Source: an uncultured Clostridia bacterium
Lineage (GTDB): Bacteria > Bacillota > Clostridia > TANB77 > CAG-508
DNA length: 64,000 bases
Direction of reading: 5' to 3'
Assembly (NCBI GenBank): GCA_946529215.1
Contig: CAMMZC010000008.1
Location: 17,656-81,655, forward strand
Shown here: piece after piece, positions 9,846-56,211 of the stretch
Position numbering within the stretch: position 1 is the first letter of the stretch
Layout of the letters: each line of letters opens with the position of its first letter
The notes under the pieces: model-generated
The model's input: only the letters and a program-made list of their open reading frames with translations
The model's database searches: none
What the model was told of the DNA's origin: nothing
Translations under genes and position numbers: made by a program

Positions 9846-9929
9846 AATTTTTCCTTTCCTTTCTTAGGCACAAATAGTAAAAAAATATTTTTTTATTTAT
9901 ATATTTCTTCCATACTCTCCTACATTTTA

Positions 9930-9958
9930 ATATTACAACCATATTTTTTTAAAGTCAA
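9930..9958 (-). promoter_or_regulatory. Sigma-A-type promoter for the 5187..9845 gene. On the minus strand it reads TTGACT-17 nt-TAATAT.
   Basis: Reverse complement of 9921-9960 is tattgactttaaaaaaatatggttgtaatattaaaatgta. It lies about 85 nt upstream of the ATG at 9845 and downstream of the terminator at 10142-10177. Confidence 0.45.
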
Positions 9959-10141
9959 TATAGCGTTTTTTATAGCATTTAGAATATACTCAAATTCTTT
10001 TTACGGAAATAGCTTTGTAACTTTTTTGTTTATTTTATTTACATTTTCTTTACATTTTTGTAACAAAGCAATTATATATTTCTCTTTTTATTTAGGGAGA
10101 GTTGAACTTTAATAGGAAAATTTCGATTTTTCCTATACAAT

Positions 10142-10177
10142 AAAAAAAGTTGAACGATAATTCGTTCAACTTTTTTT
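10142..10177. terminator. Bidirectional rho-independent terminator. It is a perfect 8-bp GC-containing stem (gttgaacg/cgttcaac) with a 6-nt loop, flanked by A7 and T7. It ends the 10183..14730 transcript.
   Basis: aaaaaaagttgaacgataattcgttcaactttttttatt read directly. The stop codon of the upstream minus-strand gene is at 10183-10185. Confidence 0.8.
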
Positions 10178-10182
10178 ATTTA

Positions 10183-14730: not shown

Positions 14731-14750
14731 TTAAAATCCTCCCTTCACTC

Positions 14751-36275: not shown

Positions 36276-37730
36276 CTACTTTATTACCCAAACTGATACG
36301 GATTTTCCTCTTACTTTAAAATTTCCAAATCCTTCATCATCTATAAAAACCTCATCTTCACAATTTTCAAGTATATCTACAAACAACTTTCCTGCAAACT
36401 TCTTTCCTATATACATTCTTTTTTCTCCATCTCCAGCATTTGATATAACTACTGCTAAACCTGAATCTGAGTGCTCTTCATCTCCTTCTCTTGTCCAACC
36501 AATGTAATTTGGATTATCTAAATAATCTGTTTGATTTCCATATGCTTTTTCTTTTCGAAGTTTTAAAAGTACATCCAACTTTTCTAAGGCTAAAACATTA
36601 TCATGTGGAATTCCATACATATCTCCATAAAATACACATGGATATCCCTCATTTCGAAGCAAAATTATACTATATGCTGGTAATTTAAACCAGTTGTTTA
36701 TAAAACTTTGAAGACTCTGTCCGGGTTGAGTATCGTGATTATCTACAAAAGTTACTGCTTTTGAAGGATTTTCTTTCATTAAAGTATGTTCTAAAATCTT
36801 AGATAAATCGTAATTTTCGTCAAGTGAAGCATAATAAAAATTATAATGTAAAGGTACATCAAATAAAGAAATTTGACCTTCTGTTTCTTCTATGTATTTA
36901 TGTAATTTAGATATATCTGCTGACCAATATTCTCCCACAGAAAATAAATCTGGCTTTATTTTTTCTGTAATTTTCTTTATAAAATCTCTATAAAATCCTG
37001 CATTAATATGTTTTACTGCATCTAATCTAAATCCATCTACACCTGTTTCTTCTAAATACCATTTTGCCCATTTATCTAGTTCATCTATAACTTCAGGGTT
37101 TCCAAAATCTATGTCTGCACCCATAAGATAATCAAAATTTCCAAATTCACCATCAACTGCATCATCCCATTTTTTGTCTTTAAATTTGAAAATTGCATGT
37201 TCTCCTGATTTATCATCATAATCTATTCCATGAAAATGTGTCCAATTCCATTCAAAATCTGAATATTTGTGTTTTCTTCCTGGGAATGTAAACTTAGTTG
37301 CAACTCTTACAATTTCTTGCCCTGAAACTTCTTTATAGTGGTCCCCCCAATCTACCTTTGTAGCTGGAATTGTTTGAAGCATATCTGCTCCCATTTTGTG
37401 ATTTAAAACTATATCTGCATATGCTTCTATACCTATTTGCTTTAATGCTTTTATGCATTCAATATATTCATCTTTTGAACCATATTTAGTTTTAATTGTT
37501 CCTTTTTGTTCAAACTCACCTAAATCGTATAAATCATAAACTCCATAACCCACTTCATCTTTTCCGCCTATTCCTTTAAATGCTGGTGGTAGCCAAATGG
37601 CTGTAATCCCTAGCTCTGAAAGATTTTCGGCATCTCTTCTTACTTTGTTCCATAAATTTTGCTCACACTCTAAATACCATTCAAAATATTGCATTATTGT
37701 TCCATTTATTTTGTTCATTTTTACTGACAT
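36276..37730 (-). CDS. amyA: Alpha-amylase (GH13), cytoplasmic type with no signal peptide.
   Basis: MQYFEWY...GITAIWLPP; GFRLDAVKHI (region II catalytic Asp); EYW; FVDNHD (region IV). Confidence 0.9.
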   Translation of the reverse strand: MSVKMNKINGTIMQYFEWYLECEQNLWNKVRRDAENLSELGITAIWLPPAFKGIGGKDEVGYGVYDLYDLGEFEQKGTIKTKYGSKDEYIECIKALKQIGIEAYADIVLNHKMGADMLQTIPATKVDWGDHYKEVSGQEIVRVATKFTFPGRKHKYSDFEWNWTHFHGIDYDDKSGEHAIFKFKDKKWDDAVDGEFGNFDYLMGADIDFGNPEVIDELDKWAKWYLEETGVDGFRLDAVKHINAGFYRDFIKKITEKIKPDLFSVGEYWSADISKLHKYIEETEGQISLFDVPLHYNFYYASLDENYDLSKILEHTLMKENPSKAVTFVDNHDTQPGQSLQSFINNWFKLPAYSIILLRNEGYPCVFYGDMYGIPHDNVLALEKLDVLLKLRKEKAYGNQTDYLDNPNYIGWTREGDEEHSDSGLAVVISNAGDGEKRMYIGKKFAGKLFVDILENCEDEVFIDDEGFGNFKVRGKSVSVWVIK

Positions 37731-37944
37731 CCCTTTCTAAGTCATAAAATTTGATTAAAATATTTCATAATCTTTTTTCAAACTTTGGTTCAAGCACTTT
37801 CTGCCTTTACGCTTTTAAGCATTTGCATATTATAATTTTACTACACACATACGAAAAATGCAAGGAATTGTTTTGCATTTCGTCCAAAAGATCTTTTAAG
37901 CGCAAAATAACAAGAGCTACAATTAAATGTAACTCTTGTTATTT

Positions 37945-40900
37945 TTATTTTTTTTGTGTTGTACATATTATAGACTTTCTTGCTGTAACACATTTCTTTT
38001 TATCTATAGTCTTATATGCTAATACTTGTAATTTATAGGTAGTTCCTGCTCTTAAGTTAATACCTGTTACTGAATTTGTTTTTGGCTTTTTATATAATAC
38101 ATATTTTTTGGCAGTTTCGTTATATGCATATACTTCATATCCATCAGCACCAGCTACAGCATTCCAATTAAGTGTAATAGATGATTTAGTTGTTTTAGCT
38201 TTTAAATTGTTAATTGTAGGTGCCTTTATATTTATCTTTGAAGTAACACTTGCTTTTCTTCCTCTAATTGTAGAACTTGCTGTAATTGTAACTGTTTTTC
38301 CATTTCCTGCCCATTTTGGTGTAATAACTCCAGTTGTAGAAATTGTTGCATATTTTTTATTATTTGTAGCCCATTTTACAGATGTTGCTTCTTTATCACT
38401 TAGAGTCGCTGTGAGCTTTAACTTGCTAAATGATGACAAATTTGCAGATGTTTTATTTAATTTTATTAAACTTGTAGTTTTTGGGGTTGTAATCTGTATT
38501 GTTCTATCTGCCCCTATAACATTAGTATATTTGTATCCATTAACTTCTTTGCCATCAACTTTAAAGTTTCTTATGTAATATCCTGTCTTATCTGATAAAT
38601 TTAAGTTCATTGTTGAACCTGGCATATAGTAATATGTATTTGTAAGCTTATTATCTATTGCTTTTTTACTATATAATTTTGCATTTATAGTTGCTTTTAT
38701 TCCAGTTGAAGGATATGTAACTGTTAATTTTGAAAGACCAGTTTTTACTGGAATGGAATATACTGATAATCCATATTCTTCACCATAATTTACCTCTGTC
38801 TCATCTTCGTACTCATTTTCGATTACTCCGAAATCGATATCTTTATCAATTATATAATATCTATTTCCTACTGCAATTCCTACTGTATCTTTGTCTCTAT
38901 TTATAATGTATCCTGATTTTTTGTATATATCTGTTGAAATATCATAATAAAATGTGTTACCATATTTTTCTGCATTTATTCCTGATAATACTAATCCTCC
39001 AGATATAAGTCCAGTTTCTGGTTTAAAATATTTTATATTATTATAACTTCCTGTATAATCTTTTAAATCTATTGTAGCCGAAGATTTTTTCCAATTCTTT
39101 CCATCAAATATTAACACACTAGGAACTTTACTATTCTCTTGTCCTCCAAATGATAATAATAGCTTATTTCCAACTTGAGTTGCTTTTGAAGCAAATCTGC
39201 CTTCTGGTAAATCTGCAACATATGACCACTTCTTTGTTGTCATATCTAATTTATATACTTTTTTAGATATTTTATTACTTATATCATTATATCCACCAAT
39301 TACATATAAATTGCCATTATATGCACCTAATGTTGTCATTGATAGATTGTTAATTCCTGTTGGCAAACTCTTTGCTTTTCTCCATATGTAGTCACCTTTG
39401 TTAATATTGTAATATGCTAAAACCTTATCTTTTGCAAATCCATAATCAAATGTAAATATAGTATAAATATTATTATTTATAAATACAAAGTCTGTATTTT
39501 CAACTTTATACTCATTTCCCATTATCTTATATTGTTCACCTAATAATGCTTGCATACTTTCATCTGTTAAATATGCTATATCAGTATTGAAAAATCCTAT
39601 TTCATCTTCTTTGTCCAATCTTATTAATGTTTTTGTTTGTGGTAAATAACTATATATATCTTTTCCATTTGTAAATAATGAATTTAAAGAATCTATACCA
39701 TAAACTGAATTTTCGAAATTGTAATTTTTCCCAGCTTTTAAATAAAATGTTTTTGAATCTGTATTTTTTTCTGTAATTTTTAAAGTAATTCTTGCTGTTG
39801 TATTTATTAAATTTTTATTTGTAACTTTCAAAGTATCTGAATTCACCTTTGTTGCAGTTACTTCTTTATTATTAACAAATACTTTAGGCATTTTATTCAT
39901 ATTATTTACTTTAATTGTTACTTCTCCATTTGTGTTTATTTTAGCTGAATTAATAAATATATTAGGATTTGATAAATATTCTAAATCCAATACCCCACTT
40001 GTTGCAACTTTATTGTTTAAACTATTTACCTTTCTTATTGTACCTAAAATTCTTTGTTTTCTTTGTAGTGCTGTTTCATTTTTATAATTTGATGATATTC
40101 CTACAGCTGAAGTAACATATGGTGTCGCCATAGATGTACCATTATAAAAGTTATATTTTCCAAAATCATCTTCATTTACTCCACTTTTACTTATTGCAAA
40201 ATCATCTATATATACATTAACTTTACTATCTTCTAGTGCATAATATAAAAACCTTATAGTACCTCCTTTAGAAACATATTCTTCTATATGAGTCCAATAA
40301 TTTTCATCTTCTGAATTAGCAATATTTTTCATATTTTTTTGTGTTTCTAGGCTTATATCTTCATAATCACTAAAATCATAGTTTATATAATATTCTCCCG
40401 AATGATTTACATTTGAAGTAACTTTTAGCATTTGACTAATTTTCTGATCATCATTTTCTGCTGTACATGGTATCAATAACTCATAAACTTTATCTTTTAC
40501 AGCATCAAATTGCCAGTTAAAGGATTGTCCACTATTTCCGAAATATGTATTTGATGATGTTGTAACTTTACCTTCTGAAATTCTATATTTAAAATCTCCT
40601 AGTCCTGAGTCAAAATCTACATATTGACTACAAAATCTTGATTTATCCTCATACAAAGATGGATTAAAACAATTATATGAAACAGTTGATAATACATTTG
40701 TTCCTGGAGCAGCTATATCTACTGTACTTGTTCCATAATTTGAAAAACCTGCTATTTCATCTTTTTCGTTAGAAGCTGCTACTGAAATAATATAATTACT
40801 GTCTAGGCATGATGGACTATTAAATACTTTATCTGTGTTACTATATTCATTCCCTGCTGCACATATAGATAATGCTCCATTTCCATCTTCATTTGGACCT

Positions 40901-41886
40901 TTTCCTACTAAATCAAATGCAGTTTTCATAATATTATCATTTGCATCAGCTTTACCACCCCAAGAGTTGTTTATCGCCACAACATTTACTCCTAGTTTTT
41001 GCGCTCTATAAATGTAATGATATGCTGAAATTGCACCATACGCAGTTCCACCCATAGGTCCTAAAAATCTTATTGGCATAATTTTAATATTAGAATTATT
41101 TAAAATTGCACCTGTTATACCTTCATTATTATTAGATTCAGCTGTAATAATACCTGCGACATGAGTACCATGACCCTCTTCATCCATAGGGTCTTCATCT
41201 GAGTCATAGAAATCATATCCATGTTCACCTTTTAACAGACCTTTACTTGCAAATGGGTTAGTCCAAATATGATTTTTTAATTCGGAATTTGTATAGTCTA
41301 CACCTGTATCTAAAACAACTATAACTTTTTCATCTGATAATTTTTTAGTTACTTTTTCAGGATTAATGTCTAACCCTTGTGTACCTGCATTTTGACCAAT
41401 ATTTTCAATTGCCCATTGATATTTTTGATAAGTGTCATTAGTTATATTAGCTGCTTTTACTTTATAATTTTTTTGAACATACATAATAGAATTTTCTTTT
41501 GATAATTTGTTAATTAATTCATCTGTAGAATATTTTTCTGATTTAACAAGTGATACTACATAATCTGTAGTTTTATCTGACTGTAAAACTGAATTTGACC
41601 TTAATAAATTATTATTGTTATTTTCTACATCTTCAAATGTTACTGTTTTTTCAACAGTCAAACCATCTAAAAATGAGCTTGGATTTATTAAGCTTTTAGA
41701 TTTTATGCGATTATCTGTTGTACTTTGTTTATACATTATTATTACTTCTCCGTCTTTGTTTTCTGAAGTATTTTTGTTATTTATCTGAGTTTGTAAATTT
41801 TCTGCCAAAACTGTTACTGGCAAATTTGTTGTTAATATTACACTAGTTAAAACTAACATAAGTGTATATCTTAAAAACTTTTTCAT
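37945..41886 (-). CDS. Secreted multidomain subtilisin-family (S8) serine protease, 1313 aa, with C-terminal beta-propeller-like, Ig-like and FN3-like domains.
   Basis: Signal peptide MKKFLRYTLMLVLTSVILTTNLPVTVLA. Catalytic triad segments VVLDTGVD, HGTHVAGI, GTSMATPYV. C-terminal repeated beta-rich modules. Confidence 0.85.
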   Translation of the reverse strand: MKKFLRYTLMLVLTSVILTTNLPVTVLAENLQTQINNKNTSENKDGEVIIMYKQSTTDNRIKSKSLINPSSFLDGLTVEKTVTFEDVENNNNNLLRSNSVLQSDKTTDYVVSLVKSEKYSTDELINKLSKENSIMYVQKNYKVKAANITNDTYQKYQWAIENIGQNAGTQGLDINPEKVTKKLSDEKVIVVLDTGVDYTNSELKNHIWTNPFASKGLLKGEHGYDFYDSDEDPMDEEGHGTHVAGIITAESNNNEGITGAILNNSNIKIMPIRFLGPMGGTAYGAISAYHYIYRAQKLGVNVVAINNSWGGKADANDNIMKTAFDLVGKGPNEDGNGALSICAAGNEYSNTDKVFNSPSCLDSNYIISVAASNEKDEIAGFSNYGTSTVDIAAPGTNVLSTVSYNCFNPSLYEDKSRFCSQYVDFDSGLGDFKYRISEGKVTTSSNTYFGNSGQSFNWQFDAVKDKVYELLIPCTAENDDQKISQMLKVTSNVNHSGEYYINYDFSDYEDISLETQKNMKNIANSEDENYWTHIEEYVSKGGTIRFLYYALEDSKVNVYIDDFAISKSGVNEDDFGKYNFYNGTSMATPYVTSAVGISSNYKNETALQRKQRILGTIRKVNSLNNKVATSGVLDLEYLSNPNIFINSAKINTNGEVTIKVNNMNKMPKVFVNNKEVTATKVNSDTLKVTNKNLINTTARITLKITEKNTDSKTFYLKAGKNYNFENSVYGIDSLNSLFTNGKDIYSYLPQTKTLIRLDKEDEIGFFNTDIAYLTDESMQALLGEQYKIMGNEYKVENTDFVFINNNIYTIFTFDYGFAKDKVLAYYNINKGDYIWRKAKSLPTGINNLSMTTLGAYNGNLYVIGGYNDISNKISKKVYKLDMTTKKWSYVADLPEGRFASKATQVGNKLLLSFGGQENSKVPSVLIFDGKNWKKSSATIDLKDYTGSYNNIKYFKPETGLISGGLVLSGINAEKYGNTFYYDISTDIYKKSGYIINRDKDTVGIAVGNRYYIIDKDIDFGVIENEYEDETEVNYGEEYGLSVYSIPVKTGLSKLTVTYPSTGIKATINAKLYSKKAIDNKLTNTYYYMPGSTMNLNLSDKTGYYIRNFKVDGKEVNGYKYTNVIGADRTIQITTPKTTSLIKLNKTSANLSSFSKLKLTATLSDKEATSVKWATNNKKYATISTTGVITPKWAGNGKTVTITASSTIRGRKASVTSKINIKAPTINNLKAKTTKSSITLNWNAVAGADGYEVYAYNETAKKYVLYKKPKTNSVTGINLRAGTTYKLQVLAYKTIDKKKCVTARKSIICTTQKK

Positions 41887-42132
41887 TTTGAAAAATCTTC
41901 TCCTTTCATTGGCACAGATTTAGCTAAAAATTATATTTATTATTAATTTTTAACTTTTGCCTTTTTTACTTGTTATGCCTGTTATTATATCACAATTTTT
42001 CTTATTTTTCAAGGCTTTTTAAGTTTTTTGTATACATAAACTATTACAAATTTTTACTATGCACAAAAAAATAGCAAGAATTTCATATTACTTGAAACCC
42101 TTGCTATTATTTTTATTATTTATTTGCTTAAA

Positions 42133-43335
42133 TTAAGCTAAGATGTCTGAAACAACTCCAGAACCTACTGTACGTCCACCTTCACGAATAGCGAATCTTA
42201 ATCCTTTTTCGATAGCGATTGGAGTAATAAGTTCGATTGTCATTGTTACATTATCTCCTGGCATAACCATTTCTGTTCCAGCTGCTAATTCAATAACACC
42301 AGTAACATCTGTTGTTCTGAAATAGAATTGTGGTCTGTATCCATTGAAGAATGGTGTATGACGTCCACCTTCTTCTTTTGTTAATACATAAACTTCAGCT
42401 GTAAATTTAGTATGTGGATTGATACTTCCTGGTTTTGCAAGAACTTGACCTCTTTCAACGTCTTTTCTATCAATTCCTCTTAATAATGCTCCAGCATTGT
42501 CTCCAGCTTCTGCTAAATCTAATGATTTTCTGAACATTTCTAGTCCTGTTATAACAGTTTTCTTTCTTTCTGTAGAAAGTCCGATGATTTCTACTTCTTC
42601 ACCAACTTTAACTTGACCTCTTTCAACTCTACCTGTAACAACTGTTCCACGTCCTGTAATTGTCATAACGTCTTCAATTGGCATTAAGAATGGTTGATCT
42701 ACTGGTCTTTCTGGTGTTGGGATGTAGCTATCAACTGCATCCATTAATTCTTTGATTGGTTTGTAAACTTCATCATTAGGGTCTGTTGATGTAGACTCTA
42801 ATACTTTTAATGAAGATCCTTTAACGATTGGAATTTCGTCTCCTGGGAAACCATAGCTTGATAATAAGTCTCTAACTTCCATTTCAACTAATTCTAATAA
42901 TTCTGGGTCATCAACCATATCGCATTTATTTAAGTAAACAACGATATATTTAACTCCAACTTGTCTAGCTAATAAGATGTGCTCTCTTGTTTGAGGCATT
43001 GGTCCATCAGCTGCAGAAACAACTAATATTGCTCCATCCATTTGAGCTGCACCTGTGATCATGTTTTTAACATAGTCAGCGTGTCCTGGGCAGTCAACGT
43101 GTGCATAGTGTCTGTTTTCTGTTTCATATTCTACGTGAGCTGTGTTGATTGTGATTCCTCTTGCTTTTTCTTCTGGTGCTCCGTCGATTTGATCATAAGC
43201 TGTGTATTGAGCCTTTCCTAATAATCCTAAATATTTTGTAATAGCTGCTGTTGTTGTTGTTTTTCCATGGTCTACGTGTCCGATAGTACCAATGTTAACG
43301 TGTGGCTTTGTTCTTTCAAACTTTGCTTTTGCCAT
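42133..43335 (-). CDS. tuf: Elongation factor Tu.
   Basis: [21 protein letters not shown] motifs. A full-length 400-aa EF-Tu. Confidence 0.97.
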
Positions 43336-43468
43336 TTTAAATTCCTCCTTTAATTTTTGCTTTAGCTACTTTCCGTAGCTTTAAGCTAATATATTTTTTA
43401 AATTTAATAACTTTGTTATTGTATGCATTATATACTATTTTTTTATAAATTGCAAGACTTTTTTAATT

Positions 43469-43930
43469 TTATTCCTTTTCTTTTGCAAACGTTCCTTTTT
43501 CCAGCATTTCTTTTTCAGCTTTTAAAAATCCTCTTTTTAGAAGAACAATAACTCTTTCTAGTGGAATATCTGGATATCTTTTTATAATATCTTTTATTAT
43601 TTCACTTGGAATTTCAGTTATCTTTTCTTCTTGTCTTCTTTCTTCTGCTTTTATTAGTTCATCTGCTTGTGAATAACCTGTTTTAAAAAGTTCAGAAATT
43701 TCATCTTTAGAAAGACTATCATAACTTCTACTAAAATGTATTATTCTATTTAAAAAATTTTCTAGTTTTATTCTTTCAGTATTTAAAGACCTATCTAATA
43801 TTTTATCTTTGAGAGCTGTATATCTTTTAATACATTCTTCTAATGAATCTAGGTTTGGATACTTACTCACCAAAGACTTTACACTATCAATTATCATTCT
43901 TTCAGCAAATTGTTTATCATTATTTTTCAT
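43469..43930 (-). CDS. Hypothetical charged helical protein (153 aa) inserted between fusA and tuf.
   Basis: Clean ORF in the 500-bp fusA-tuf spacer. No recognisable motif. Confidence 0.5.
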   Translation of the reverse strand: MKNNDKQFAERMIIDSVKSLVSKYPNLDSLEECIKRYTALKDKILDRSLNTERIKLENFLNRIIHFSRSYDSLSKDEISELFKTGYSQADELIKAEERRQEEKITEIPSEIIKDIIKRYPDIPLERVIVLLKRGFLKAEKEMLEKGTFAKEKE

Positions 43931-43955
43931 TTTAATTCCTTATTACTATAAAATT

Positions 43956-46043
43956 TTATTCTGCATTGTTTTTAGCTCTTGAACTAACAATTTGCTCATG
44001 AACTGATTTTGGAACTTCTTCATAGTGAGATGGTTCCATAGAATATGTTCCTCTACCTTGTGTTTTAGAACGTAAGTCTGTTGCATATCCAAACATTTCT
44101 GATAGTGGTACAAAGCTTCTAATTTCTTCCATTCCATCAACTGCGTCCATTCCTTCGATTCTACCACGTCTTGAGTTAATATCTCCAATAACATCTCCCA
44201 TGTATTCTTCTGGAACTGTTACTTCAACTCTCATTATTGGCTCTAAGATAACTGATTTAGCTTGTTTACATCCTTCTTTGAATGCCATAGAAGCTGCAAT
44301 CTTGAATGCCATTTCTGAAGAGTCAACTTCGTGGTATGATCCATCAACTAATGTAGCTTTGAAGTCTATAACTGGATATCCAGCTAAGATTCCGCTTTCA
44401 GCTGCTTCTCTCATTCCTTGTTCAATTGGTTTAATATATTCTTTTGGAACAGCTCCACCAACAATTTTGCTTTCGAATTCTATTCCTTTTCCTGGCTCTA
44501 ATGGTTCCATTTCAAACCAAACATCACCATATTGTCCTTTACCACCTGATTGACGAATGAATTTACCTTGAACTTTAACTTTATTTCTAATTGTTTCTTT
44601 ATAAGAAACTTGTGGTTTACCAACATTACATTCAACGTGGAATTCTCTTTTTAATCTATCTACGATTATGTCTAAGTGTAATTCTCCCATTCCTGCAATT
44701 ATTGTTTGACCTGTTTCTTGGTTTGTATATGCTTTGAATGTAGGATCTTCTTCAGCAAGTTTTGCTAAAGCAATTCCCATTTTTTCTTGAGCTGCTTTAT
44801 CTTTTGGCTCAATAGCTATATCGATAACTGGCTCTGGGAATTCCATAGACTCTAAGATAACTGGATTGTTTGGATCACATAATGTATCTCCTGTTCCAAC
44901 TTCTTTAAGTCCTACTGCTGCAGCGATATCTCCTGCATATACTTTGTCGATATCTTCTCTATGATTTGAGTGCATTTGAAGAATTCTTCCGATTCTTTCT
45001 TTTTTATCTTTACTTGAGTTTAATACAGTTGAACCAGAATCTAGTGTTCCTGAATAAACTCTAAAGAAACATAATTTTCCAACAAATGGGTCTGTAGCAA
45101 TTTTAAATGCTAATGCTGCAAATGGTTCTGAATCTGAAGTTTTTCTTTCAACTTCATTTCCTTCCATATCTACACCTTTAATATGAGCTATATCTAATGG
45201 TGATGGCATAAAATCTACAACTGCATTTAATAATTCTTGTACACCTTTGTTTTTGTATGAAGAACCACATGTAACAGGTACTATAGCATTTGCTATTGTT
45301 CCCATTCTTAAACCTTTTTTGATTTCTTCTTCTGTTAGTTCTTCACCATCTAAATATTTCATCATTAATTCTTCATCTTGTTCAGCTGCAGCTTCGATCA
45401 TTTCTGATCTGAATTTTTCTGCATCTGCTTGCATTTCTGCTGGGATATCTTGTTCTTCTATAACTTTTCCTAAATCATCTTTATGAACAAATGCTTTCAT
45501 TTTGATTAAGTCTACAATTCCTTGGAAATTGTCTTCTGCTCCAATTGGTAATTGAATTGGAACTGGATGAGCTCTTAATCTTGTTTTCATTTGCTCAACA
45601 CAAAGCATAAAGTTTGCTCCTGTGATATCCATTTTGTTTACATATACCATTCTTGGTACATTGTATTTATCAGCTTGTCTCCAAACTGTTTCTGTTTGTG
45701 GTTGAACTCCACCTTTTGCAGCTAAAACTGTAACAGCTCCATCAAGTACTTTAAGAGATCTTTGAACTTCTACTGTAAAGTCAACGTGACCTGGTGTATC
45801 TATGATATTTATTCTATGATCATTCCAAAAACATGTTGTTGCAGCAGATGTAATTGTGATTCCTCTTTCTTGTTCTTGTTCCATCCAGTCCATTGTAGCA
45901 GCACCTTCATGTACTTCTCCAATTTTGTGTGTTTTTCCTGTATAGAAAAGAATTCTTTCTGTTGTTGTTGTTTTTCCTGCATCTATGTGGGCCATTATTC
46001 CTATATTTCTTGTTCTTTCTAATGGACATTGTCTACCTGCCAT
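43956..46043 (-). CDS. fusA: Elongation factor G.
   Basis: [21 protein letters not shown] motifs. 695 aa. Confidence 0.97.
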
Positions 46044-46064
46044 ATTTTTTTCCTCCTCATTTTA

Positions 46065-46535
46065 CTAGAATCTGTAATGAGCAAAAGCCTTATTAGCTTC
46101 AGCCATTTTATGAGTATCTTCTTTCTTCTTGAATGCTCCACCATTTCCGTTAACAGCATCAATTATTTCACCTGCTAATTTTTCTGCCATTGTTTTTTCA
46201 TGTCTTTTTCTAGCATATGTTACCAACCATCTTAATCCTAGAGTTTGTCTTCTTTCTGGTCTTATTTCTAATGGAACTTGGTATGTTGCTCCACCTACTC
46301 TTCTTGCTTTAACTTCTAGTACTGGCATTATGTTTTCAAGTGCTGCTTCAAATACTCCTAGTGGATCTTTTTGCTCTTTTTCTTTTATGATATCAAATGC
46401 ATCATATACGATTTCTTGAGCTACAGATTTTTTACCATCTAACATTATGTTGTTTACAAGTTTTGTAACAACTTTGCTATTATATATTGGATCTGGTAAT
46501 ACATCTCTTTTTGCTATAAATCCTCTTCTTGGCAC
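46065..46535 (-). CDS. rpsG: 30S ribosomal protein S7 (GTG start).
   Basis: MPRRG...full-length S7. The start codon reads GTG, preceded by AAAGGAG. Confidence 0.95.
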
Positions 46536-46965
46536 TATTCTTCACTCCTTTCTTAGTTAGGTAGAAATTTTTAAAATATGGTTATTTTTTAATCTATAGA
46601 GTTTCGAAATTTGTTACTCTTAATTAGATTTAACTAATATTTCTACCTATGATAGATACTTTATACAAAAAGTATCAAAGTTACTCTGATAAGCTCTTTT
46701 GCTTACCCGCATAGTGTTTATATTTTCTAAATTTAAGTACCTCTTAATAATTTAGTAAGATACAAACGCTATTTTTTCTTTGAATCTACAAACTTCGTTT
46801 CTAAATCCAAATCTTTCTTCGTTCTAAAATTGAAGCTATATAAAATTGATTAAATTAGGTATATTGCTAGGCAAAATTGTTTGAAAAGGCAAAGGAGCAT
46901 ACGTGGTGTATGTAACTGCGTTTTTAAATAACTTTGACGACGCAAGATGCCTGATTTCATTCATT

Positions 46966-47379
46966 TTATTTTTTTGGTTTCTTTGCTCCATACTTCGAAC
47001 GACCTTGCATTCTGTCTTTAACTCCTGCTGTATCTAATGTTCCTCTAATAATGTGGTATCTTACACCTGGAAGGTCTTTTACTCTTCCTCCTCTTATTAA
47101 AACAACACTGTGTTCTTGTAGGTTATGTCCTATACCTGGGATATAAGATGTAACTTCATAACCATTTGAAAGTCTAACTCTGGCTACTTTTCTTAAAGCT
47201 GAGTTTGGCTTTTTAGGTGTTACAGTTTTAACTACTGTACATACTCCTCTTTTTTGTGGACTTCTTGCATTTGTTTGTCTTTTATTTTTTGAGTTATATC
47301 CATGTTGAAGAGCTGGTGCAGTTGATTTTGTAACTCCTGTTTTTCTTCCTTTCCTTACTAATTGATTAATTGTTGGCAC
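46966..47379 (-). CDS. rpsL: 30S ribosomal protein S12.
   Basis: [13 protein letters not shown]...[10 protein letters not shown] is diagnostic of S12. Confidence 0.96.
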
Positions 47380-47615
47380 TTAAATTTCACCTCCTATTTT
47401 TAAAATGTGACAAATCTCGCTTTGAAAAAAGCGTAAAGATTCGTCGACGCGAAAAATTGTTTCACAATTTTTCTGTGCATCGTTTTTTAATTTTTAGAAA
47501 ATAAAATTTTTTAAAAATTAAAACCGCTACGGAAATAACTATTTCTAGTTTTTTCCATAACGGTTATATTTTATCACGTTTTATTACATATGTCAATGGT
47601 TTTTGAGGATTTTTT

Positions 47616-48113
47616 TTACCTCTCGCCATTATCTTTGTCTCGTAGACTATCAAATTTCATTTTTTCTTCTGGTGCAAAATTTTGCTCTCTTAAAATTCCA
47701 ATTTGTATTATCATTTTTTTTAATGTTTTTATCATTTCTACCGCAACATATTTTACATTTATTTCACTTTGATCTTCAACAAGTATATAATTAAATATTG
47801 CAGCATATCCATCATATTCATCTTTTAATTCTTTTATTGATTTTAATATATATTTTTTATCTGATATTCTATATTCTTTTCTTAAACAACTATAATCTTT
47901 CAATTCTTCTTTAGTAATACTTCCTTTAAAAGCTTTAATTAATTCTAACATTTTTTCCAAAGTTATTATCATTTCTTGTGCAAAATAGTTAACATTAATT
48001 TCACTTTGGTCTTCTTTAAGTATATTATTATTAAATATTGCTTCAAAACCATCATATTCACTTTCTAAGTAATTTAATTGTTTCAATTTTTCTTCTATTT
48101 CTTCAATTTCCAC
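47616..48113 (-). CDS. Hypothetical cytoplasmic protein (165 aa, GTG start) made of two tandem copies of a roughly 75-aa domain.
   Basis: Internal duplication EYDGFEAIFNNNILKEDQSEINVNYFAQEMIITLEKM... versus EYDGYAAIFNYILVEDQSEINVKYVAVEMIKTLKKM.... It lies 43 nt downstream of the 1011-aa gene. Confidence 0.5.
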   Translation of the reverse strand: MEIEEIEEKLKQLNYLESEYDGFEAIFNNNILKEDQSEINVNYFAQEMIITLEKMLELIKAFKGSITKEELKDYSCLRKEYRISDKKYILKSIKELKDEYDGYAAIFNYILVEDQSEINVKYVAVEMIKTLKKMIIQIGILREQNFAPEEKMKFDSLRDKDNGER

Positions 48114-48156: not shown

Positions 48157-51100
48157 CTACTTTACACATATATTGCTTTTATCTAAATCTGGTGCAGCTT
48201 CTAAACTGTTTGTAGGTGTAATTGGTTCTACATCAATATGTTCTATTCCTTTCTTAGCCAAATTATCTCTTCTTTTTTGCATTCTTGCTACACGTTCTTC
48301 ATATGCTGATATTTGTTTTATATCTCCAACATTTCCTCTATTTAATGATAAGATTCTATCTTTTGATGGCAAAAATCTTTCTAGTGGACTTTGCATTTTT
48401 CTTATTATTTTTGCAATTAATGTCTCGTGATATGTTCCTTTTATATCAGCAACTTGATATGTATTATTTGCAACAGTAGCTAATTCGGCGATTCTATCTT
48501 TTTGATTAACTGTTAATTCATTTCTATCTAGCCAACTTTGTTCAGCATTTTTACTCTCATCAGTAGCGTTTCTCATATATCCAATATTTCTTGTATCTGT
48601 TGCTATCATAGAACGAAGTGCTTTAAATGAAACCCCTGATAAATTGTCTAAATTATATGTTACATCTATATTGTGAGTATATGGTGATTTAATATATTTT
48701 TGTATTTTCTTTATGTCATCACTTTGTCCTATTTTCTCTAAAATATCATAATGTGTTCCTAATATATTAAAAATGTAACCTTTAATTAAAGCGTCTCTTC
48801 TTTGTGATTCTGCATTAAAAACATCTTTAATAGAGTTTATGATTGTAAAATCTATTTGTACATTACTATTTTTACAAACTTCTATTAATTTATTGATATC
48901 AGGCGAATAAGCTTCTCTGTTGATCACGTCCATAAATTTTTCTGTACTTAATGATGCATAATATATATTTAATTCTGCTGCATCTTTATAAACTTCTTGA
49001 TCTACTTTACGAGAGCGACCAAATAAACCTTCACCTACTTTTATCTTTCCATTTTTGCCTATTGTTATTTTATATGATTTGTTGCCCAAAACATCTTTTA
49101 AATTTTGTGCTTCCTTATCTATATCTATTCCATCATCTAAGTCTACACTTTGAGTTCTTGTTGATTCAGGTCTTAATGTTGATGGTATTTCAGTGGTTGA
49201 AGTTACAGAAGCTTTTGGAGTTTTAGGTATTGTTGATGAAAATGTTCTTGGTTCTCGCGTAGCTGATTTTGGTATCTCTGGTGTTGGATTTTCTTCAGAA
49301 ATAAATGGCTTTACCTTTGACATATTTGATTGCCCAATTGAGCTTATAGTTTCTTCCCTATCTTTTTTAGCTTCTCGTTCTGCTTGTTCTCTTAATCCTT
49401 TTTCAATTTCATCAAATTCAGCTTCAACCCCCATTTCAGTTTTTCCCTCTGCTGGTGTTTGCTCTATTGGTTCTCCTGCTTGTCTATTTAATTCTTTATC
49501 GTTTTTCAATCTCTGCATTATTATTTCTGCTTCATCTTTGCTTATCTTAAATACTCCTCCTATTCTAGATGCTTCAACTGTCTCCTTCCATTGTATCATT
49601 TTTTTATACCATTCTCTGACTTCTTTATAAAACAACTCATCTACAAGTTGCACAATCTTTTTATACTTTTCTTCACTAATATTTTTTCCTCTTTGTGCTT
49701 CAAGAAATTCCTTTACTTTTTTATATTCAATTTTATATATAATAGTATTTGTTTTGCCTCTACCATAGCCTCCTTGATTCATTAAAATTCCTAATCTGCT
49801 TAATTTATTTGTTATTTTGTAATCTAGAATTTCTTCATCAATACTTCCATATTTGAATTCATTTGTCTCGAAATCAAATGAACGTTGATAAACACAATTA
49901 TATTGAAGATCTCCATTTTCTATACGAGCTAATAACCATTGTGTTAACATTTTATCATCTACTTCTACAGATGAATTATGAGTTGACTGTTCTGGATTTG
50001 TTGGTTCTGGTGTTACTTTATTATATACTATTCCATATTCTTCTAGGACTTCTTTAGTTCGTTCTTTGTTTATTAAATTATTTAAATCATAATCCTCAAC
50101 AACTCCTATTTTAACCAACTCAGAAAAAACATTAACTGCCTGATCATAAGATATTTTTAGCTCAACACTCAAATTAGTCACAAATAATCTTTCTCTCTTA
50201 TCATTAAGGCGTTTTGCAACCACTTCCATTGCTTTTTTCATTAAATCTTCTGATACCTTGATTTCTGTTTCATCAGGTTCTTCTGGTTCTGCTTCATCAA
50301 GTTCTTCTGCTTCTATTTCATCAGGCTCTGCTATTTCTGCTTCATCAGGTTCTTCTGCTTCTATTTCATCAGGCTCTGCTATTTCTGCTTCATCAGGTTC
50401 TTCTGCTTCTGCTTCATCAGGTTCTTCTGCTTCTGCTTCATCAGGTTCTTCTGCTTCTACTTTATCAGGTTCTTCTGGTTCTATCAGTTCAACTTCTTCT
50501 TGTAGTTGTTCTAATGATTTTACATCAAAAGTACTACATAAAACTTTAATTTTATCCTTTGAACCGCCTTCAAGATTAGCCATATTTTTTTCATATCCAT
50601 CAAGTTCATCCCATAAATCGCTTAATCTGTCAGGATTTAATTTTTCTAATTCTTTGTCTATTTCAGCAATTCTAGAATTAGCATTTTCTTCCCTTCTTTT
50701 TAAATCACGATAAATACTATCATCTGCTCTTACTTTTCTATTCTCTGCTAATTCAATTAATTCTCTAAACCTTTTTCTGTCATTTTCTAGTGATTTTTTT
50801 TCGGCATTTAATCTATTTATGCTTACTTCTTCTTGTACTTCTGCATTTATTCTATTTTTTTCTTCTTGTATTTTTTCTATTATCTCTTCTGCAAATTCTT
50901 CAATTTCTTGATTTAGTTTTTCTTCAAGCTCAGCTATTTCATCTTTTAACTCTTTTAATTCCTGTTGTCTTTCATCTAATAATAAAGAAATTCTTTCTCT
51001 TCTTTCTCTCTGAATTTTAACAGGATTCTGACTACCATTTGACAAAACATCAGCATTATTTGCTCTATAATTTTCATCATCATTTGCTAAAATATTATAA

Positions 51101-51192
51101 TCTTCTTCTAAGTCTTTCTTATAATCATCAATTTCTTCTTGACGTCTTTCAAATTCCTGAATCTTGCTTTTAATATCTTCTAATTCTAACAT
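48157..51192 (-). CDS. Large (1011 aa) cytoplasmic hypothetical protein. It has an N-terminal coiled coil, an acidic EPDEAEAE repeat linker, a winged-helix-like segment and a C-terminal domain of unknown function.
   Basis: No signal peptide. The first 230 aa are heptad-rich and E/K/R-rich. The repeats are encoded by 24-bp units. MKKAMEVVAKRLNDKRERLFVTNLSVELKISYDQAVNVFSELVKIGVVED resembles an FtsK-gamma / DnaD-type wHTH. GGYGRGKT matches GxxxxGK[ST], but there is no Walker B motif. The RBS is AAGGGAGGAATAT. Confidence 0.7.
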   Translation of the reverse strand: MLELEDIKSKIQEFERRQEEIDDYKKDLEEDYNILANDDENYRANNADVLSNGSQNPVKIQRERRERISLLLDERQQELKELKDEIAELEEKLNQEIEEFAEEIIEKIQEEKNRINAEVQEEVSINRLNAEKKSLENDRKRFRELIELAENRKVRADDSIYRDLKRREENANSRIAEIDKELEKLNPDRLSDLWDELDGYEKNMANLEGGSKDKIKVLCSTFDVKSLEQLQEEVELIEPEEPDKVEAEEPDEAEAEEPDEAEAEEPDEAEIAEPDEIEAEEPDEAEIAEPDEIEAEELDEAEPEEPDETEIKVSEDLMKKAMEVVAKRLNDKRERLFVTNLSVELKISYDQAVNVFSELVKIGVVEDYDLNNLINKERTKEVLEEYGIVYNKVTPEPTNPEQSTHNSSVEVDDKMLTQWLLARIENGDLQYNCVYQRSFDFETNEFKYGSIDEEILDYKITNKLSRLGILMNQGGYGRGKTNTIIYKIEYKKVKEFLEAQRGKNISEEKYKKIVQLVDELFYKEVREWYKKMIQWKETVEASRIGGVFKISKDEAEIIMQRLKNDKELNRQAGEPIEQTPAEGKTEMGVEAEFDEIEKGLREQAEREAKKDREETISSIGQSNMSKVKPFISEENPTPEIPKSATREPRTFSSTIPKTPKASVTSTTEIPSTLRPESTRTQSVDLDDGIDIDKEAQNLKDVLGNKSYKITIGKNGKIKVGEGLFGRSRKVDQEVYKDAAELNIYYASLSTEKFMDVINREAYSPDINKLIEVCKNSNVQIDFTIINSIKDVFNAESQRRDALIKGYIFNILGTHYDILEKIGQSDDIKKIQKYIKSPYTHNIDVTYNLDNLSGVSFKALRSMIATDTRNIGYMRNATDESKNAEQSWLDRNELTVNQKDRIAELATVANNTYQVADIKGTYHETLIAKIIRKMQSPLERFLPSKDRILSLNRGNVGDIKQISAYEERVARMQKRRDNLAKKGIEHIDVEPITPTNSLEAAPDLDKSNICVK
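50269..50485 (-). repeat. In-frame 24-bp tandem repeat (about 9 copies, with a nested 48-bp periodicity) encoding (A)EEPDEAE(A/I) acidic repeats.
   Basis: ttcatcaggttcttctgcttctgc / ttcatcaggctctgctatttctgc units read directly. Confidence 0.9.
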
Positions 51193-51390: not shown

Positions 51391-53196
51391 TTATCCTTCA
51401 AAAACTCTATCAAATTCTTCTCCATCGATTTTTTCTTTTTCAAGTAATATTCCTGCAACAATGTGTAATTTGTCAATATTGCTTGATAAAATCTTTTTAG
51501 CCTTATCATAAGCAGTGTCAATTATTTTCTTTACTTCTTCATCTATAATAGCTGCTGTTTCTTCAGAATATGTTTTAGATTGAGCCAAATCTCTTCCTAA
51601 AAATACTTCTCCTTGATCTCCGTCAAACATTATAGTTCCTAGTCTATCACTCATACCATAAACTGTAACCATACTTCTTGCCATTTTTGTAGCTCTTTCA
51701 ATATCATTACTTGCACCTGTAGAAACATCATCTAAAATTAAGCTTTCGGCAACTCTTCCTCCAAGTAAAGACACAATTGTTTCTTCCATATATGTTTTAG
51801 ATATAAATGACTTATCTTCTGTAGGTCTATACATTGTATATCCTCCAGCTGTTCCACGAGGTACTATCGAAATTTCATGTACAGGATCTTGTGTTGGTAA
51901 AAATTTACTTACAACTGCATGACCTGCTTCATGGTATGCTACTAATTTCTTTTCATGTTCATTTCTAACTCTTGTTTTCTTTTCAGGACCCATTGTAACT
52001 TTTACCATAGCATCTTCTATTTCTCTCATTCCTATTTCTTGTAGATCTCTTCTTGCTGCTAAAAGTGCTGCTTCATTTAAAACATTCTCTAAATCTGCTC
52101 CTGCAAATCCTGATGTATTTTTTGCTATTATTTTTAAATCAACATCATCTGATAAACGTTTCTTTCTACTATGAACTTCAAGTATCTGCTCTCTTGCTTT
52201 TACATCTGGAGCTCCTACTACTATTTGTCTGTCAAATCTTCCTGGTCTTAATAAAGCTTTATCTAAAATGTCTGGTCTATTTGTTGCAGCTAATACTATA
52301 ACTCCTTCATTTGCAGCAAATCCATCCATCTCAACTAATAATTGGTTTAATGTTTGCTCTCTTTCATCATGTCCTCCGCCAAGTCCTGCACCTCTTTGAC
52401 GTCCTACTGCATCTATTTCATCTATAAATATAATACATGGCGAATTTCTTTTAGCTTGCTCAAATAAGTCTCTTACACGTGAAGCACCAACACCTACAAA
52501 CATTTCTACAAAGTCTGAACCACTTATTATAAAAAATGGCACTCCCGCTTCTCCCGCAACTGCTTTTGCTAAAAGTGTTTTACCAGTTCCCGGTTGACCT
52601 ACAAGCAATACTCCTTTTGGAATTCTTGCACCCATATCTGTGAATTTCTTTGGATTTTTTAAAAATTCTACTATTTCTTGTAATTCTTCTTTTTCTTCAT
52701 CTACACCCGCTACATCTTCAAATGTAATTTTATTCTTATCTGCTGTATTTACAAGTCTTGCTCTACTCTTTCCAAATGTAAGTGTTTTATTTCCACCTTG
52801 AGATCCATTTCCATTCATCATGAAAAACCAGAATACTAAGAAAATTGCTACTAACCCAAATGGCATTAATAGACTTAGTAGTGTAACCCATATAGATTTA
52901 GATGCACTTTCTATACTAAAGTTTCCTGCTTTTATATCTTCATTGGCATAACTCATAAAACTATCTAAACTAGGTATATTTACTTGTTTTGGTCCTTTCT
53001 GTGATTTTAATGTTACATAAGCAGATGTTCCTTCCGAACTTACCTCTATAGATTCCACATTTTTCTCCTCAATGTTTTCGATAAGTTCTGAGTAAGTCAT
53101 CTTTGAATTTGTGTTGTCTATTATTGATGAAATGACAACAATCAAAATGATTCCGATTATTAGCCATGTTGCTAATGATTTAATTCCGTTTTTCAC
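51391..53196 (-). CDS. ftsH: ATP-dependent zinc metalloprotease FtsH.
   Basis: Two N-terminal TM segments. AAA Walker A GQPGTGKT, Walker [14 protein letters not shown] zinc motif. Confidence 0.96.
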
Positions 53197-53637
53197 GATT
53201 TTTCCTCCTTTTTAATTGGTGTTGTTTTTTTTTGTAAATTTGCACACCTCTTGATTTTTATTATTTGCAATATACCACATAAATATATGAAATGCAAGCT
53301 TTTTTTTATGTCATTTTTATTACATTTTCAAGGCTTTACGGAAAGCTACTTTAAGACAATATTTTTTTTAAAAAATTTCTACGCACCCCAAAAATTGGGG
53401 GTAAGCTGAGAATTGACGCAAATGCATTTTCAAACTAAAAATTGATTTTTTAGTATATTCATCTCAAATTATTCATTTAATACCTTTTTAAAGTCCTAAT
53501 TCTTGCATTTCTAGTTGTGGCCTGGCGTCTTTGTTTTACATTAAAAAATCGTTTACAAATTTTTATAAAAAATTAATAATTACTAAAAGCTTAATTTTTT
53601 CACTTTGTATTAAGCTGCATACTTAAAAGCTTAATAA

Positions 53638-54627
53638 CTATTTGTATGCAATAAAATGTATCTTCCCCTTATTTACTAAGACCTTTATATTCTTATTTGG
53701 CTTCAAGTACTTATTTCCGATGTTTTTCTCACACATTTTTATGATATCTTCTATATTAATTTTCTCGACATTTTGTGCATTCCCTAGTACTTTAGAAATT
53801 GTATATAATAACATTCTTTTTCTTATTAAAATATCTTTTGTGTTGAATTTTTTAAGATTTAAAATTATTTCTTCGTCAGTTTCTTCTATTTTTATTTCAT
53901 TATAGTTTTCAATAACTTGTTTTTGAATAAATTCGTCTGTTTCTGTTGCCACCTCTGAAAGCCTACTCATTGTTTCTATTATATTAGAATTAAATTCTTT
54001 TTTTACATAAGGCAAAACTATATTTCTTATTTTATTTCTTGTACAATCATTTTCAAAATTAGTTTTGTCAATTCTCGGTTTTAAATTATTCTCTTCTGCA
54101 TACTTTTCAATTTCTGCTCTTTCACATTCTATTATAGGTCTTATATATTTATTATCTCTAATTGGCTCAATCCCTCTTAATCCAGAAATTCCACTTCCTC
54201 TTATAATATTCATTATAATTGTTTCTGCTTTGTCATTTTTATTATGTGCAATTGCAATTTTATTTGCATTTTCTTTTTCTAAAATTTCATCAAAAAATTC
54301 ATATCTTAATTTTCTTCCAGCCTCTTCTAATCCCATTTTATTATTATTTGCATATTTTATAACATCTATTCTTTTTGAATAAAATTTTATATCATTTTTT
54401 TCACAATATTTTTTAACATATTCTTCATCATCATTTGCTTCTTCTCTAATTTGATGATTTATGTGACATGCAATAATTTCAAAATTTAAAATTTTATTTT
54501 CACAAAATTTATTTAAAATATGTAATAAAGAAATAGAGTCTGGACCGCCAGAAACTCCAACTATGACTCTATCTCCATCTTCTATTAAATTATATTTTTT
54601 AATTGTATCTAAAACTTTTTGCTCCAT
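53638..54627 (-). CDS. tilS: tRNA(Ile)-lysidine synthetase, short form (329 aa).
   Basis: PP-loop SGGPDS near the N-terminus. The C-terminal extension of long TilS proteins is missing. Confidence 0.85.
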   Translation of the reverse strand: MEQKVLDTIKKYNLIEDGDRVIVGVSGGPDSISLLHILNKFCENKILNFEIIACHINHQIREEANDDEEYVKKYCEKNDIKFYSKRIDVIKYANNNKMGLEEAGRKLRYEFFDEILEKENANKIAIAHNKNDKAETIIMNIIRGSGISGLRGIEPIRDNKYIRPIIECERAEIEKYAEENNLKPRIDKTNFENDCTRNKIRNIVLPYVKKEFNSNIIETMSRLSEVATETDEFIQKQVIENYNEIKIEETDEEIILNLKKFNTKDILIRKRMLLYTISKVLGNAQNVEKINIEDIIKMCEKNIGNKYLKPNKNIKVLVNKGKIHFIAYK

Positions 54628-54731
54628 TTTTACTCCTTTTAAGGTTCCTTTTTGGGACGGAGGAAAAAAGTAACCTCATTTTTTGTATTATATAATATTA
54701 TTTCTATGCAATATATTCATTATGTTGACCC

Positions 54732-56066: not shown

Positions 56067-56211
56067 AATCCATTCTCCTTCTATTTGGGGACGGGGTAAA
56101 AATTCACTCACGTCCATTTTTGAGCTCAACATTTTGAACTTTCTTTTATGGACCGAGAAAAAAGTAACCTCAATTCACCAAATATTAACAACCCCTATTG
56201 TTGAATTGTAC

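Follow-up and report, generated by a model that had tools for sequence, protein, structure and literature searches.

Few gene arrangements in bacteria are as conserved as the str operon, and in many bacteria the cluster is linked to rpoBC on its upstream side and to the S10 operon on its downstream side. Secondary tuf promoters that lie within or after fusA have been reported for Escherichia coli tufA and for Bacillus tuf. Lineage-specific additions to the str region are known as well, such as rpl7ae/ybxF upstream of rpsL in Bacilli and the tusDCB and bfd-bfr genes that flank the operon in Enterobacterales (PMC8046335, Brandis 2021). A literature search turned up no account of a gene inserted between fusA and tuf. 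Here we describe such a candidate, orfX, an open reading frame (ORF) in the fusA-tuf spacer of an uncultured Clostridia bacterium (assembly GCA_946529215.1, contig CAMMZC010000008.1, positions 17,656 to 81,655 of the forward strand; this stretch of 64,000 nt is referred to as the window, and its positions are used throughout unless another locus is named). orfX is probably a genuine translated gene that belongs to a very young or very fast-evolving family, which is confined to one genus-level clade and occurs only in the fusA-tuf spacer.

orfX spans 43469..43930 on the minus strand, starts with ATG and comprises 462 nt with its stop codon, encoding 153 amino acids (aa). The initial annotation had called an extra ORF of exactly this length, without recognisable family, inside the rpsL-rpsG-fusA-tuf cluster and on the strand of its neighbours, and in these respects it was correct; the gap that it had put at 587 bp measures 620 nt (43336-43955). 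The gene order on the minus strand is rpsL, rpsG, fusA, orfX, tuf. fusA and orfX are separated by 25 nt (43931-43955) that are 100% identical in loci L103 and L008, and a Shine-Dalgarno (SD) sequence, AAGGA (43937..43941, minus strand), can be read 6 nt before the ATG. This ribosome-binding support had been left unchecked in the annotation, which had named the loss of the ORF in relatives and a missing ribosome-binding site as signs against a gene; we find that relatives retain the ORF at the same place.

Several lines of evidence indicate that orfX is very probably a real coding gene. When the 620-nt gap was simulated 5000 times with a first-order Markov model the longest ORF averaged 43.5 aa with a maximum of 139 aa, and the length of 153 aa was reached in 0/5000 simulations. 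All six distinct DNA alleles are intact, with length differences that amount to whole codons (3-nt indels), and intact orthologues, always between fusA and tuf, are found down to 55% protein identity. The ratio of nonsynonymous to synonymous substitution rates (dN/dS) is 0.45-0.48 overall; the comparison of the window with the most divergent of these variants, allele B, gives 0.47 (nonsynonymous differences 91/370, synonymous differences 36/86), with dN significantly below dS (pN 0.25 vs pS 0.42). Conservation is patterned and not uniform, with 76 invariant columns across alleles that are 55% identical, and motifs shared by the family persist down to 28-30% identity. The codon adaptation index (CAI) of orfX is highest in the annotated frame (0.62 vs 0.32-0.58 in the five other frames). 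This value lies within the range of the window's ordinary genes (0.54-0.74) and well under that of tuf and fusA (0.81-0.84), and orfX is not adapted to very high translation.

The family is small and, as far as it can be traced, restricted to one place in the genome. A search of 5.8 billion protein clusters returned four matches, namely the window protein itself, a variant with 89-90% identity (A') and the two 55% variants that represent allele B. An exhaustive hidden Markov model (HMM) search across 1.84 billion cluster representatives contributed the fragment P0016 and the distant relatives P0017 (161 aa), P0019 (108 aa) and P0020 (165 aa), plus two marginal matches only, and nothing but P0022 and P0023, each of 106 aa, came from two more profile searches. 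The 106-aa protein is a family member over the N-terminal module (hmmsearch E 4e-9), whose motifs read E-x-x-I ... S-(L/F)-V-x-(K/x)-(Y/F/H)-P ... C ... S-x-x-(Y/F) ... L-F-x-x-G. Judging from alignments and synteny, nine clusters (P0001-P0004, P0017, P0019, P0020, P0022 and P0023) combine these motifs with a place between fusA and the tuf promoter, and together they make up the orfX family. On every family-bearing contig with a readable upstream end the member follows fusA, and it precedes tuf wherever the contig is long enough. orfX found nothing significant in Pfam, NCBIfam, PHROGs (best match E 0.07) or PADLOC, and a profile search of PDB sequences yielded nothing relevant to it. A scan of GTDB genomes with the orfX profile gave no match, no paralogue occurs elsewhere in the window, and Rfam recognises no RNA family in the fusA-tuf gap. 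A mobile-element origin was considered and rejected: neither tblastn against phages and plasmids nor a scan of IMG/VR produced an orfX match, and no terminal repeats flank the ORF.

The spacer itself was surveyed at loci that were recovered with elongation factor G (EF-G) from 185,579 GTDB species genomes, and only where fusA and tuf were found together. In all surveyed genomes outside the orfX clade and its sister clade the spacer is shorter than 250 nt, in line with the short spacer that the initial annotation had ascribed to most bacteria. orfX does not belong to the canonical str gene set, and at the surveyed loci outside the clade no gene occupies its position. In the sister clade, the EF-G of which is 87.6-90.9% identical, spacers reach 309 nt at most; some contain unrelated ORFs of 61-62 aa (L092, L094, L096) and others no ORF (L012 141 nt, L095 ~170 nt, L013 309 nt). 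Since spacers elsewhere are this short and their contents unrelated or absent, orfX is peculiar to a single genus-level clade of uncultured Clostridia with low GC content from rumen and gut. By EF-G, the named organism closest to this clade is Ructibacterium (Oscillospiraceae) with 73% identity. In the very AT-rich spacers of L092 and L096 the 62-aa ORF is followed by GC-rich perfect palindromes (GGGCACAGTGTGCTGTGCCC; CGGGCACGAAATGCCGTGCCCG) which look like repetitive extragenic palindromic (REP)-type elements; in L092 similar GC-rich hairpins recur 3' of tuf.

Within the clade the slot between fusA and tuf is filled in different ways. One 153-aa gene is present in the window, L008, L009 and L103-L109 (slot A or A'; L008 and L103-L109 stem from studies of sheep and cattle), and one 152-aa gene in L001-L007 and L100-L102 (slot B). 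L010 holds an unrelated 127-aa ORF together with a 165-aa member (slot C), whereas L011 holds a 60-aa ORF, an apparent remnant and a 108-aa member (slot D). Tandem members of 106 and 161 aa occupy L097, L110 and L111, and the 161-aa member stands alone in L098 (slot E), while a single 106-aa member is found in L112 and L113 (slot F). The flanks of slots E and F are ~95.5% identical to the window at the nucleotide level. The contigs of distant relatives start with the 3' end of fusA, the product of which is identical to that of the window over 27-38 residues, and those that are long enough finish in the tuf promoter or in tuf. Both L010 and L011, short contigs that run from fusA to the tuf promoter and carry two different slot arrangements, derive from the same sample (ERZ14209543). 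Since short contigs that end at the slot are the pattern of an assembly graph broken at a polymorphism, slot variants probably coexist in this one community.

Some slot proteins share a C-terminal peptide (GSEPEL, DSEPEL or EEPEL, and GSEPGR in P0017; L010 1075-1086, L011 981-992 and 460-471, L097 1030-1044), and the same proteins have one leader in common, TATAACGGTTATTTTAAATAATCGAAGGAGTATAAAATG, identical among them and with the palindrome ATAAC-G-GTTAT inside it. The second gene of E-type loci is preceded by a degenerate copy of the tuf promoter and leader, which suggests that cassettes were added through duplication of the promoter region.

The divergence of orfX stands out against its surroundings. 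Between the window and the B strains rpsL, rpsG, fusA and tuf are 97% identical at the nucleotide level and orfX is 72% identical, with a drop that begins exactly at the fusA stop codon. dS of the str genes is ~0.1, and their 97% identity reflects extreme constraint and codon bias, whereas dS of ordinary genes on the same contigs (dnaB 0.42, tilS 0.47, ftsH 0.27, amylase 0.41-0.62) approaches the 0.63 of orfX. Alleles A and B therefore separated at about the same time as the strains. Ancient alleles under balancing selection were likewise considered for the A/B divergence and dropped as unnecessary, given an orfX dS of 0.63 near the background of 0.27-0.62. What sets orfX apart is its dN of 0.29 vs 0.003-0.044 in other genes. 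The A/B divergence thus matches the background at synonymous sites, and the protein simply evolves fast; relative to synonymous change, amino-acid change in orfX is ~10x faster than in neighbouring genes.

The A allele shows the opposite anomaly, a similarity between the window and L103 that is too high. The window and L103 (A') differ in orfX at 2/88 synonymous sites, compared with 11/71 at the end of fusA next to it, 29/271 in tuf and 46.5/88 in the amylase gene, and in orfX they also differ by 14 nonsynonymous changes. The 14:2 ratio fits neutrality and is borderline high for a dN/dS of 0.45 (binomial estimate p ~0.05). The pattern is most simply explained if the orfX segment was exchanged recently between lineages and then acquired substitutions that mostly alter amino acids. 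Distances in tuf do not sort by orfX allele. Taken as a whole, the history of the family includes tandem duplication, loss, gain and loss of modules and at least one recent recombinational exchange between lineages.

The orfX product is an 18 kDa protein with an isoelectric point (pI) of 7.7, in which K, R, E and D account for 40% of the residues and acidic and basic residues are equal in number; it contains one Cys and no Trp. No hydrophobic or membrane segment and no signal peptide was detected in it. AlphaFold2 (AF2) predicts an all-helical fold with helices at residues 2-23, 30-40, 47-69, 75-104, 109-118 and 124-152, which agrees with the helical and charged character that had been ascribed to the product. 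The predicted local distance difference test (pLDDT) score rose from 78 with four input sequences to 81.7 with eight, the five models ranging from 79 to 82. Foldseek found no structural relative in PDB or BFVD (best E 0.37). The protein consists of a ~100-aa N-module and a C-module that partly repeats it, the C-terminal third echoing the middle of the protein with the pattern …Y-x-x-(I/V)-(S/T)-x-(E/D)-x-(V/I)-x-x-L-(F/L)-x-x-G-x-x-x-A…. Shuffling supports this internal repeat for allele B (2/2000 shuffles) and P0020 (1/2000), and it is weaker in the window allele; a trace of it remains at the DNA level (43570-43596 vs 43816-43842). The product would thus be a soluble, highly charged, six-helix, two-module protein without catalytic-looking conserved residues, and one may infer that it acts by binding another macromolecule and not by catalysis, as a dispensable accessory factor of the lineage. 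With its predicted six-helix bundle of two modules, the product is probably a binding protein; considering the predicted helical repeat, the lack of catalytic-type residues, the weak constraint and the variation in copy number, orfX most likely encodes a dispensable binding or adaptor protein.

The operon layout clarifies how orfX might be expressed. Upstream lies fusA (43956..46043, minus strand), assigned from its translation, the Pfam domains on orthologous loci and the per-feature identities, preceded by rpsG (46065-46535) and rpsL (46966-47379), both minus-strand entries of the ORF list; downstream lies tuf, encoding EF-Tu (42133..43335, minus strand, from the ORF translation). A strong promoter-like site 5' of rpsL (47568..47596, minus strand; TTGACA-17-TAAAAT with TG, 11/12 match) is the likely start of a rpsL-rpsG-fusA-orfX(-tuf) transcript, and the sole minus-strand terminator-like site from rpsL to the end of tuf is an intrinsic terminator after tuf (42070..42108, minus strand). 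Transcription would start at the rpsL promoter and run through rpsG, fusA and orfX without meeting a terminator, orfX would be translated from its own AAGGA site, and the transcript would continue into tuf. A second promoter, TTGCAA-17-TATAAT (43427..43455, minus strand; -35 43455-43450, 17-nt spacer, -10 43432-43427; 10/12 in a consensus scan), follows the orfX stop codon at a distance of 14 nt. Both hexamers have been retained in every slot type and in sister-clade loci without orfX, while the spacer around them is unalignable, and we take this site as a functional tuf promoter. With neither a terminator nor a promoter between fusA and orfX, co-transcription with fusA is plausible, and since the promoter of tuf lies after orfX the latter is most aptly seen as the final cistron of the rpsL-rpsG-fusA message. 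The earlier proposal of co-transcription with both elongation factors at very high levels is therefore plausible as regards fusA and overstated as a whole, considering the conserved promoter that tuf has of its own and the modest CAI of orfX.

The hairpin that had been noticed before tuf exists and is stable, one base away from the position given for it (43365-43381 claimed, 43364-43380 measured). Its core, AGCTAC-ttTcc-GTAGCT, is part of a larger structure on the minus strand (43359..43386; GCTT/AAGC plus AGCTAC/GTAGCT) that lies 23 nt upstream of the tuf ATG, and the 5' untranslated region (UTR) of tuf folds with -15.5 kcal/mol (z = -3.65). The structure persists in A', B and F loci, which are too similar in sequence to show covariation, and the sister clade and E-type leaders lack it or have something else in its place. 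It is a feature of the tuf leader and not of orfX. The leader starts with an inverted repeat, AATAAC-aaa-GTTATT (43406..43420, minus strand), that is invariant in the window, L103, L001, L100, L097 and L098, and the similar ATAAC-G-GTTAT occurs upstream of the genes for P0017, P0019 and P0020. The E-type tuf leader is ~90 nt longer, with the -35 element at -208 instead of -120 (L097 1045-1270, L098 634-859, L110 1755-1980), and an unrelated insert replaces the hairpin of the window, so the 5' UTR of tuf is itself modular.

The wider surroundings of the str cluster show variability of their own. In the window the cluster (42133-47379) is linked neither to rpoBC on its upstream side nor to the S10 operon on its downstream side and is flanked by dnaB-tilS-ftsH (51391-56132) and by peptidase and amylase genes (36276-41886). 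The spacer between rpsL and rpsG is unusually long (430 nt, 46536-46965, minus strand) and its length changes between strains (430, 406, 235 and 167 nt; L001 616-1021, L002 671-837, L101 7158-7392). A core of ~120 nt is conserved in it and contains a hairpin whose arms, TAGGC...GCCTA in relatives and TAAGC...GCTTA in the window, differ by one compensatory change. This may represent a translational operator of the S7 type; Rfam has no family that reaches threshold in this spacer. Directly 5' of the rpsL promoter a 165-aa orphan ORF (47616-48113, minus strand) without Pfam match displays an obvious internal duplication (EYDGFEAIFNNNILKEDQSEINVNYFAQEMIITLEKM / EYDGYAAIFNYILVEDQSEINVKYVAVEMIKTLKKM), and L101 has a different orphan of 106 aa in its place. 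Between ftsH and the str cluster lies an ORF of 1011 aa with zero Pfam domains (48157-51192, minus strand), the L101 counterpart of which is only 565 aa long. On the other side, the region 3' of tuf varies between strains: the window encodes a secreted S8 peptidase of 1313 aa with Kelch repeats (37945-41886, minus strand), L003 (2228-3685) and L103 have an alpha-amylase gene directly after tuf, and L100 (3996-9582), L102 and L110 (3467-9048) a type VII secretion locus with a 1514-aa FHA-FtsK/EssC protein and WXG100-like genes. Further away, three consecutive giant ORFs (1552, 1515 and 1649 aa; 5187-19700, minus strand) with SdrD-B, SpaA and DUF11 domains are probably cell-surface adhesins.

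A number of points count against regarding orfX as a translated, functional gene. Its transcription and translation, like the function of its product, are predicted from the sequence, and a binding partner is putative. Allele B has no SD sequence within 15 nt of its ATG. A dN/dS of ~0.45-0.7 is high for a functional gene and also fits weak or decaying constraint, and the short-term ratio is 1.7 (14 nonsynonymous to 2 synonymous changes), a value not significantly above 1; the Nei-Gojobori/Jukes-Cantor (NG/JC) estimates of dS are rough at a genomic GC content of ~10% at third codon positions (GC3), and the counts are small. Most relatives are short metagenome contigs, so that strain assignment and flank comparisons rest on few loci, and a chimeric assembly of conserved flanks is possible. 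High substitution ratios, ordinary codon usage and the missing SD sequence of allele B would suit an ORF without function, which stays open only since its translation shields the fusA-tuf transcript from termination or decay, or which is the decaying remnant of inserted DNA. The apparent ORF remnant in L011, a 32-aa fragment that ends in EEPEL, shows that slot genes do decay, and the sister clade manages without orfX. This explanation is nevertheless hard to reconcile with amino-acid conservation that follows a pattern and with the excess of synonymous over nonsynonymous divergence between A and B, and the five AF2 models agree confidently on one fold. Protection of read-through is moreover not essential, since tuf has its own promoter. 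We rate it as a poor explanation, and a purely non-functional ORF is made unlikely by the patterned conservation and the confident fold. Somewhat more room, though still little, may be given to the idea that the slot is the cradle of a protein gene which is being born and built up there, with a role tied to the co-expressed translation factors. The slot states could then form a series that begins with empty spacers of 141-170 nt (L012, L095) and continues through ORFs of 61-62 aa (L092, L094, L096) to single-module genes of 106-108 aa (L011, L112, L113), from which internal duplication could have produced the two-module genes of 152-165 aa (window, allele B, L010) and eventually tandem pairs (L097, L110); the product may for instance modulate or guard EF-G or EF-Tu in a strain-specific manner. 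No non-coding precursor, as a de novo origin would require, could be aligned.

Rapid protein evolution, varying copy number and gene content, and unrelated small ORFs that share the slot would also be expected of a component of a conflict system, be it anti-phage, immunity- or antitoxin-like or linked to type VII secretion, that exploits the strong and constitutive transcription of the str operon and owes its diversity to an arms race. That one allele was exchanged laterally in recent times and has since gained 14 nonsynonymous and 2 synonymous changes points in the same direction, and so does the EssC/WXG100-like secretion locus immediately 3' of tuf in some strains. That locus is however confined to those strains, the window having the S8 peptidase gene there, and orfX has no WXG motif or secretion signal, no WXG100 match and no Trp, its conserved central motif being L-F-x-x-G. 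The slot carries no toxin-like or enzymatic partner gene, and its proteins have no meaningful PADLOC, PHROGs or Pfam match (in PADLOC none for orfX, and for the other slot proteins only weak, short helical matches with E ~6e-4 to 1e-3 or weaker). The family is absent from the phage, plasmid and viral collections, and given the background dS the A/B divergence requires no diversifying selection. A role in conflict thus appears unlikely to us. We consider it least probable of all that orfX encodes a small regulator of the helix-turn-helix (HTH) or sigma-region-4 type, acting for example on the tuf promoter that it adjoins. The peptide on which a weak likeness to sigma-70 region 4 had been based, IPLERVIVLLKRGFLKAEKEMLEKG, is indeed present as residues 122-146, yet the likeness did not hold: no HTH or sigma family is matched at E<=10 in Pfam or NCBIfam, and Foldseek finds no match to any DNA-binding domain. 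The only trace of it comes from hhalign, which aligns the family profile to the five repeats of P0018 (73% probability over 26 columns, motif xSLVxKYPxxxSxExCI), a 319-aa HTH-repeat protein that matches HTH_23, HTH_3 and Sigma70_r4. Proteins of this type, with HTH and 'KYPxxxTVEQII' repeats, share with orfX the motif S-L-x-x-K-Y-P-x-(L/I)-x-(S/T)-x-E-x-x-I, but the aligned stretch follows the HTH core of P0018 and lies in the N-terminus of orfX and not in the C-terminal peptide; orfX lacks the HTH core, and the 26 columns establish no homology at the level of a domain. The long helices of the AF2 models, including a continuous one of 22 residues where a helix-turn-helix would be expected, do not resemble a compact three-helix HTH fold, the pI of 7.7 goes along with balanced charges, and the tuf promoter is conserved in genomes without orfX.

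We return to orfX as a probably translated gene of a family that diversifies in a fixed place. A family of otherwise unknown small proteins changes between fusA and tuf by duplication, loss, gain of modules and lateral exchange. If the protein is made, orfX offers an accessible natural example of a young gene that became established via the transcription of an essential operon, and its product may be a partner of the translation machinery that is peculiar to this lineage. Without such a product the locus would still show that a core operon can accommodate a variable insert of 0.3-1.1 kb, provided that the downstream gene keeps its own promoter. For annotators, such ORFs are to be expected, and kept, in metagenome-assembled genomes of gut Clostridia.

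How does this locus compare with what has been described? Like rpl7ae/ybxF, tusDCB and bfd-bfr, orfX is a non-canonical gene of a single lineage within the conserved rpsL-rpsG-fusA-tuf cluster. Those genes however lie at the edges of the operon and have known families and functions, whereas orfX is placed between fusA and tuf and has no known family, and the content of its slot changes between close strains. The arrangement at tuf is reminiscent of the secondary tuf promoters of E. coli and Bacillus in that tuf has a promoter of its own besides read-through from rpsL, here conserved in the clade and its sister clade; unlike in E. coli and Bacillus, a protein gene is accommodated between the fusA stop codon and this promoter. 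The family is new to every library searched, but its kind, a taxonomically restricted and fast-evolving small protein gene, is familiar. As in orphan small protein genes, among which are candidates for a de novo origin from intergenic DNA, there is no homologue outside a narrow clade, the product is short, helical, charged, weakly constrained and fast-evolving, and the corresponding site in relatives is empty or differently filled. What is unusual is the position inside a core operon, together with slot states that can be seen as a series: in contrast to the usual orphan gene, orfX resides within a core translation operon, and its family has already been duplicated both internally and in tandem.

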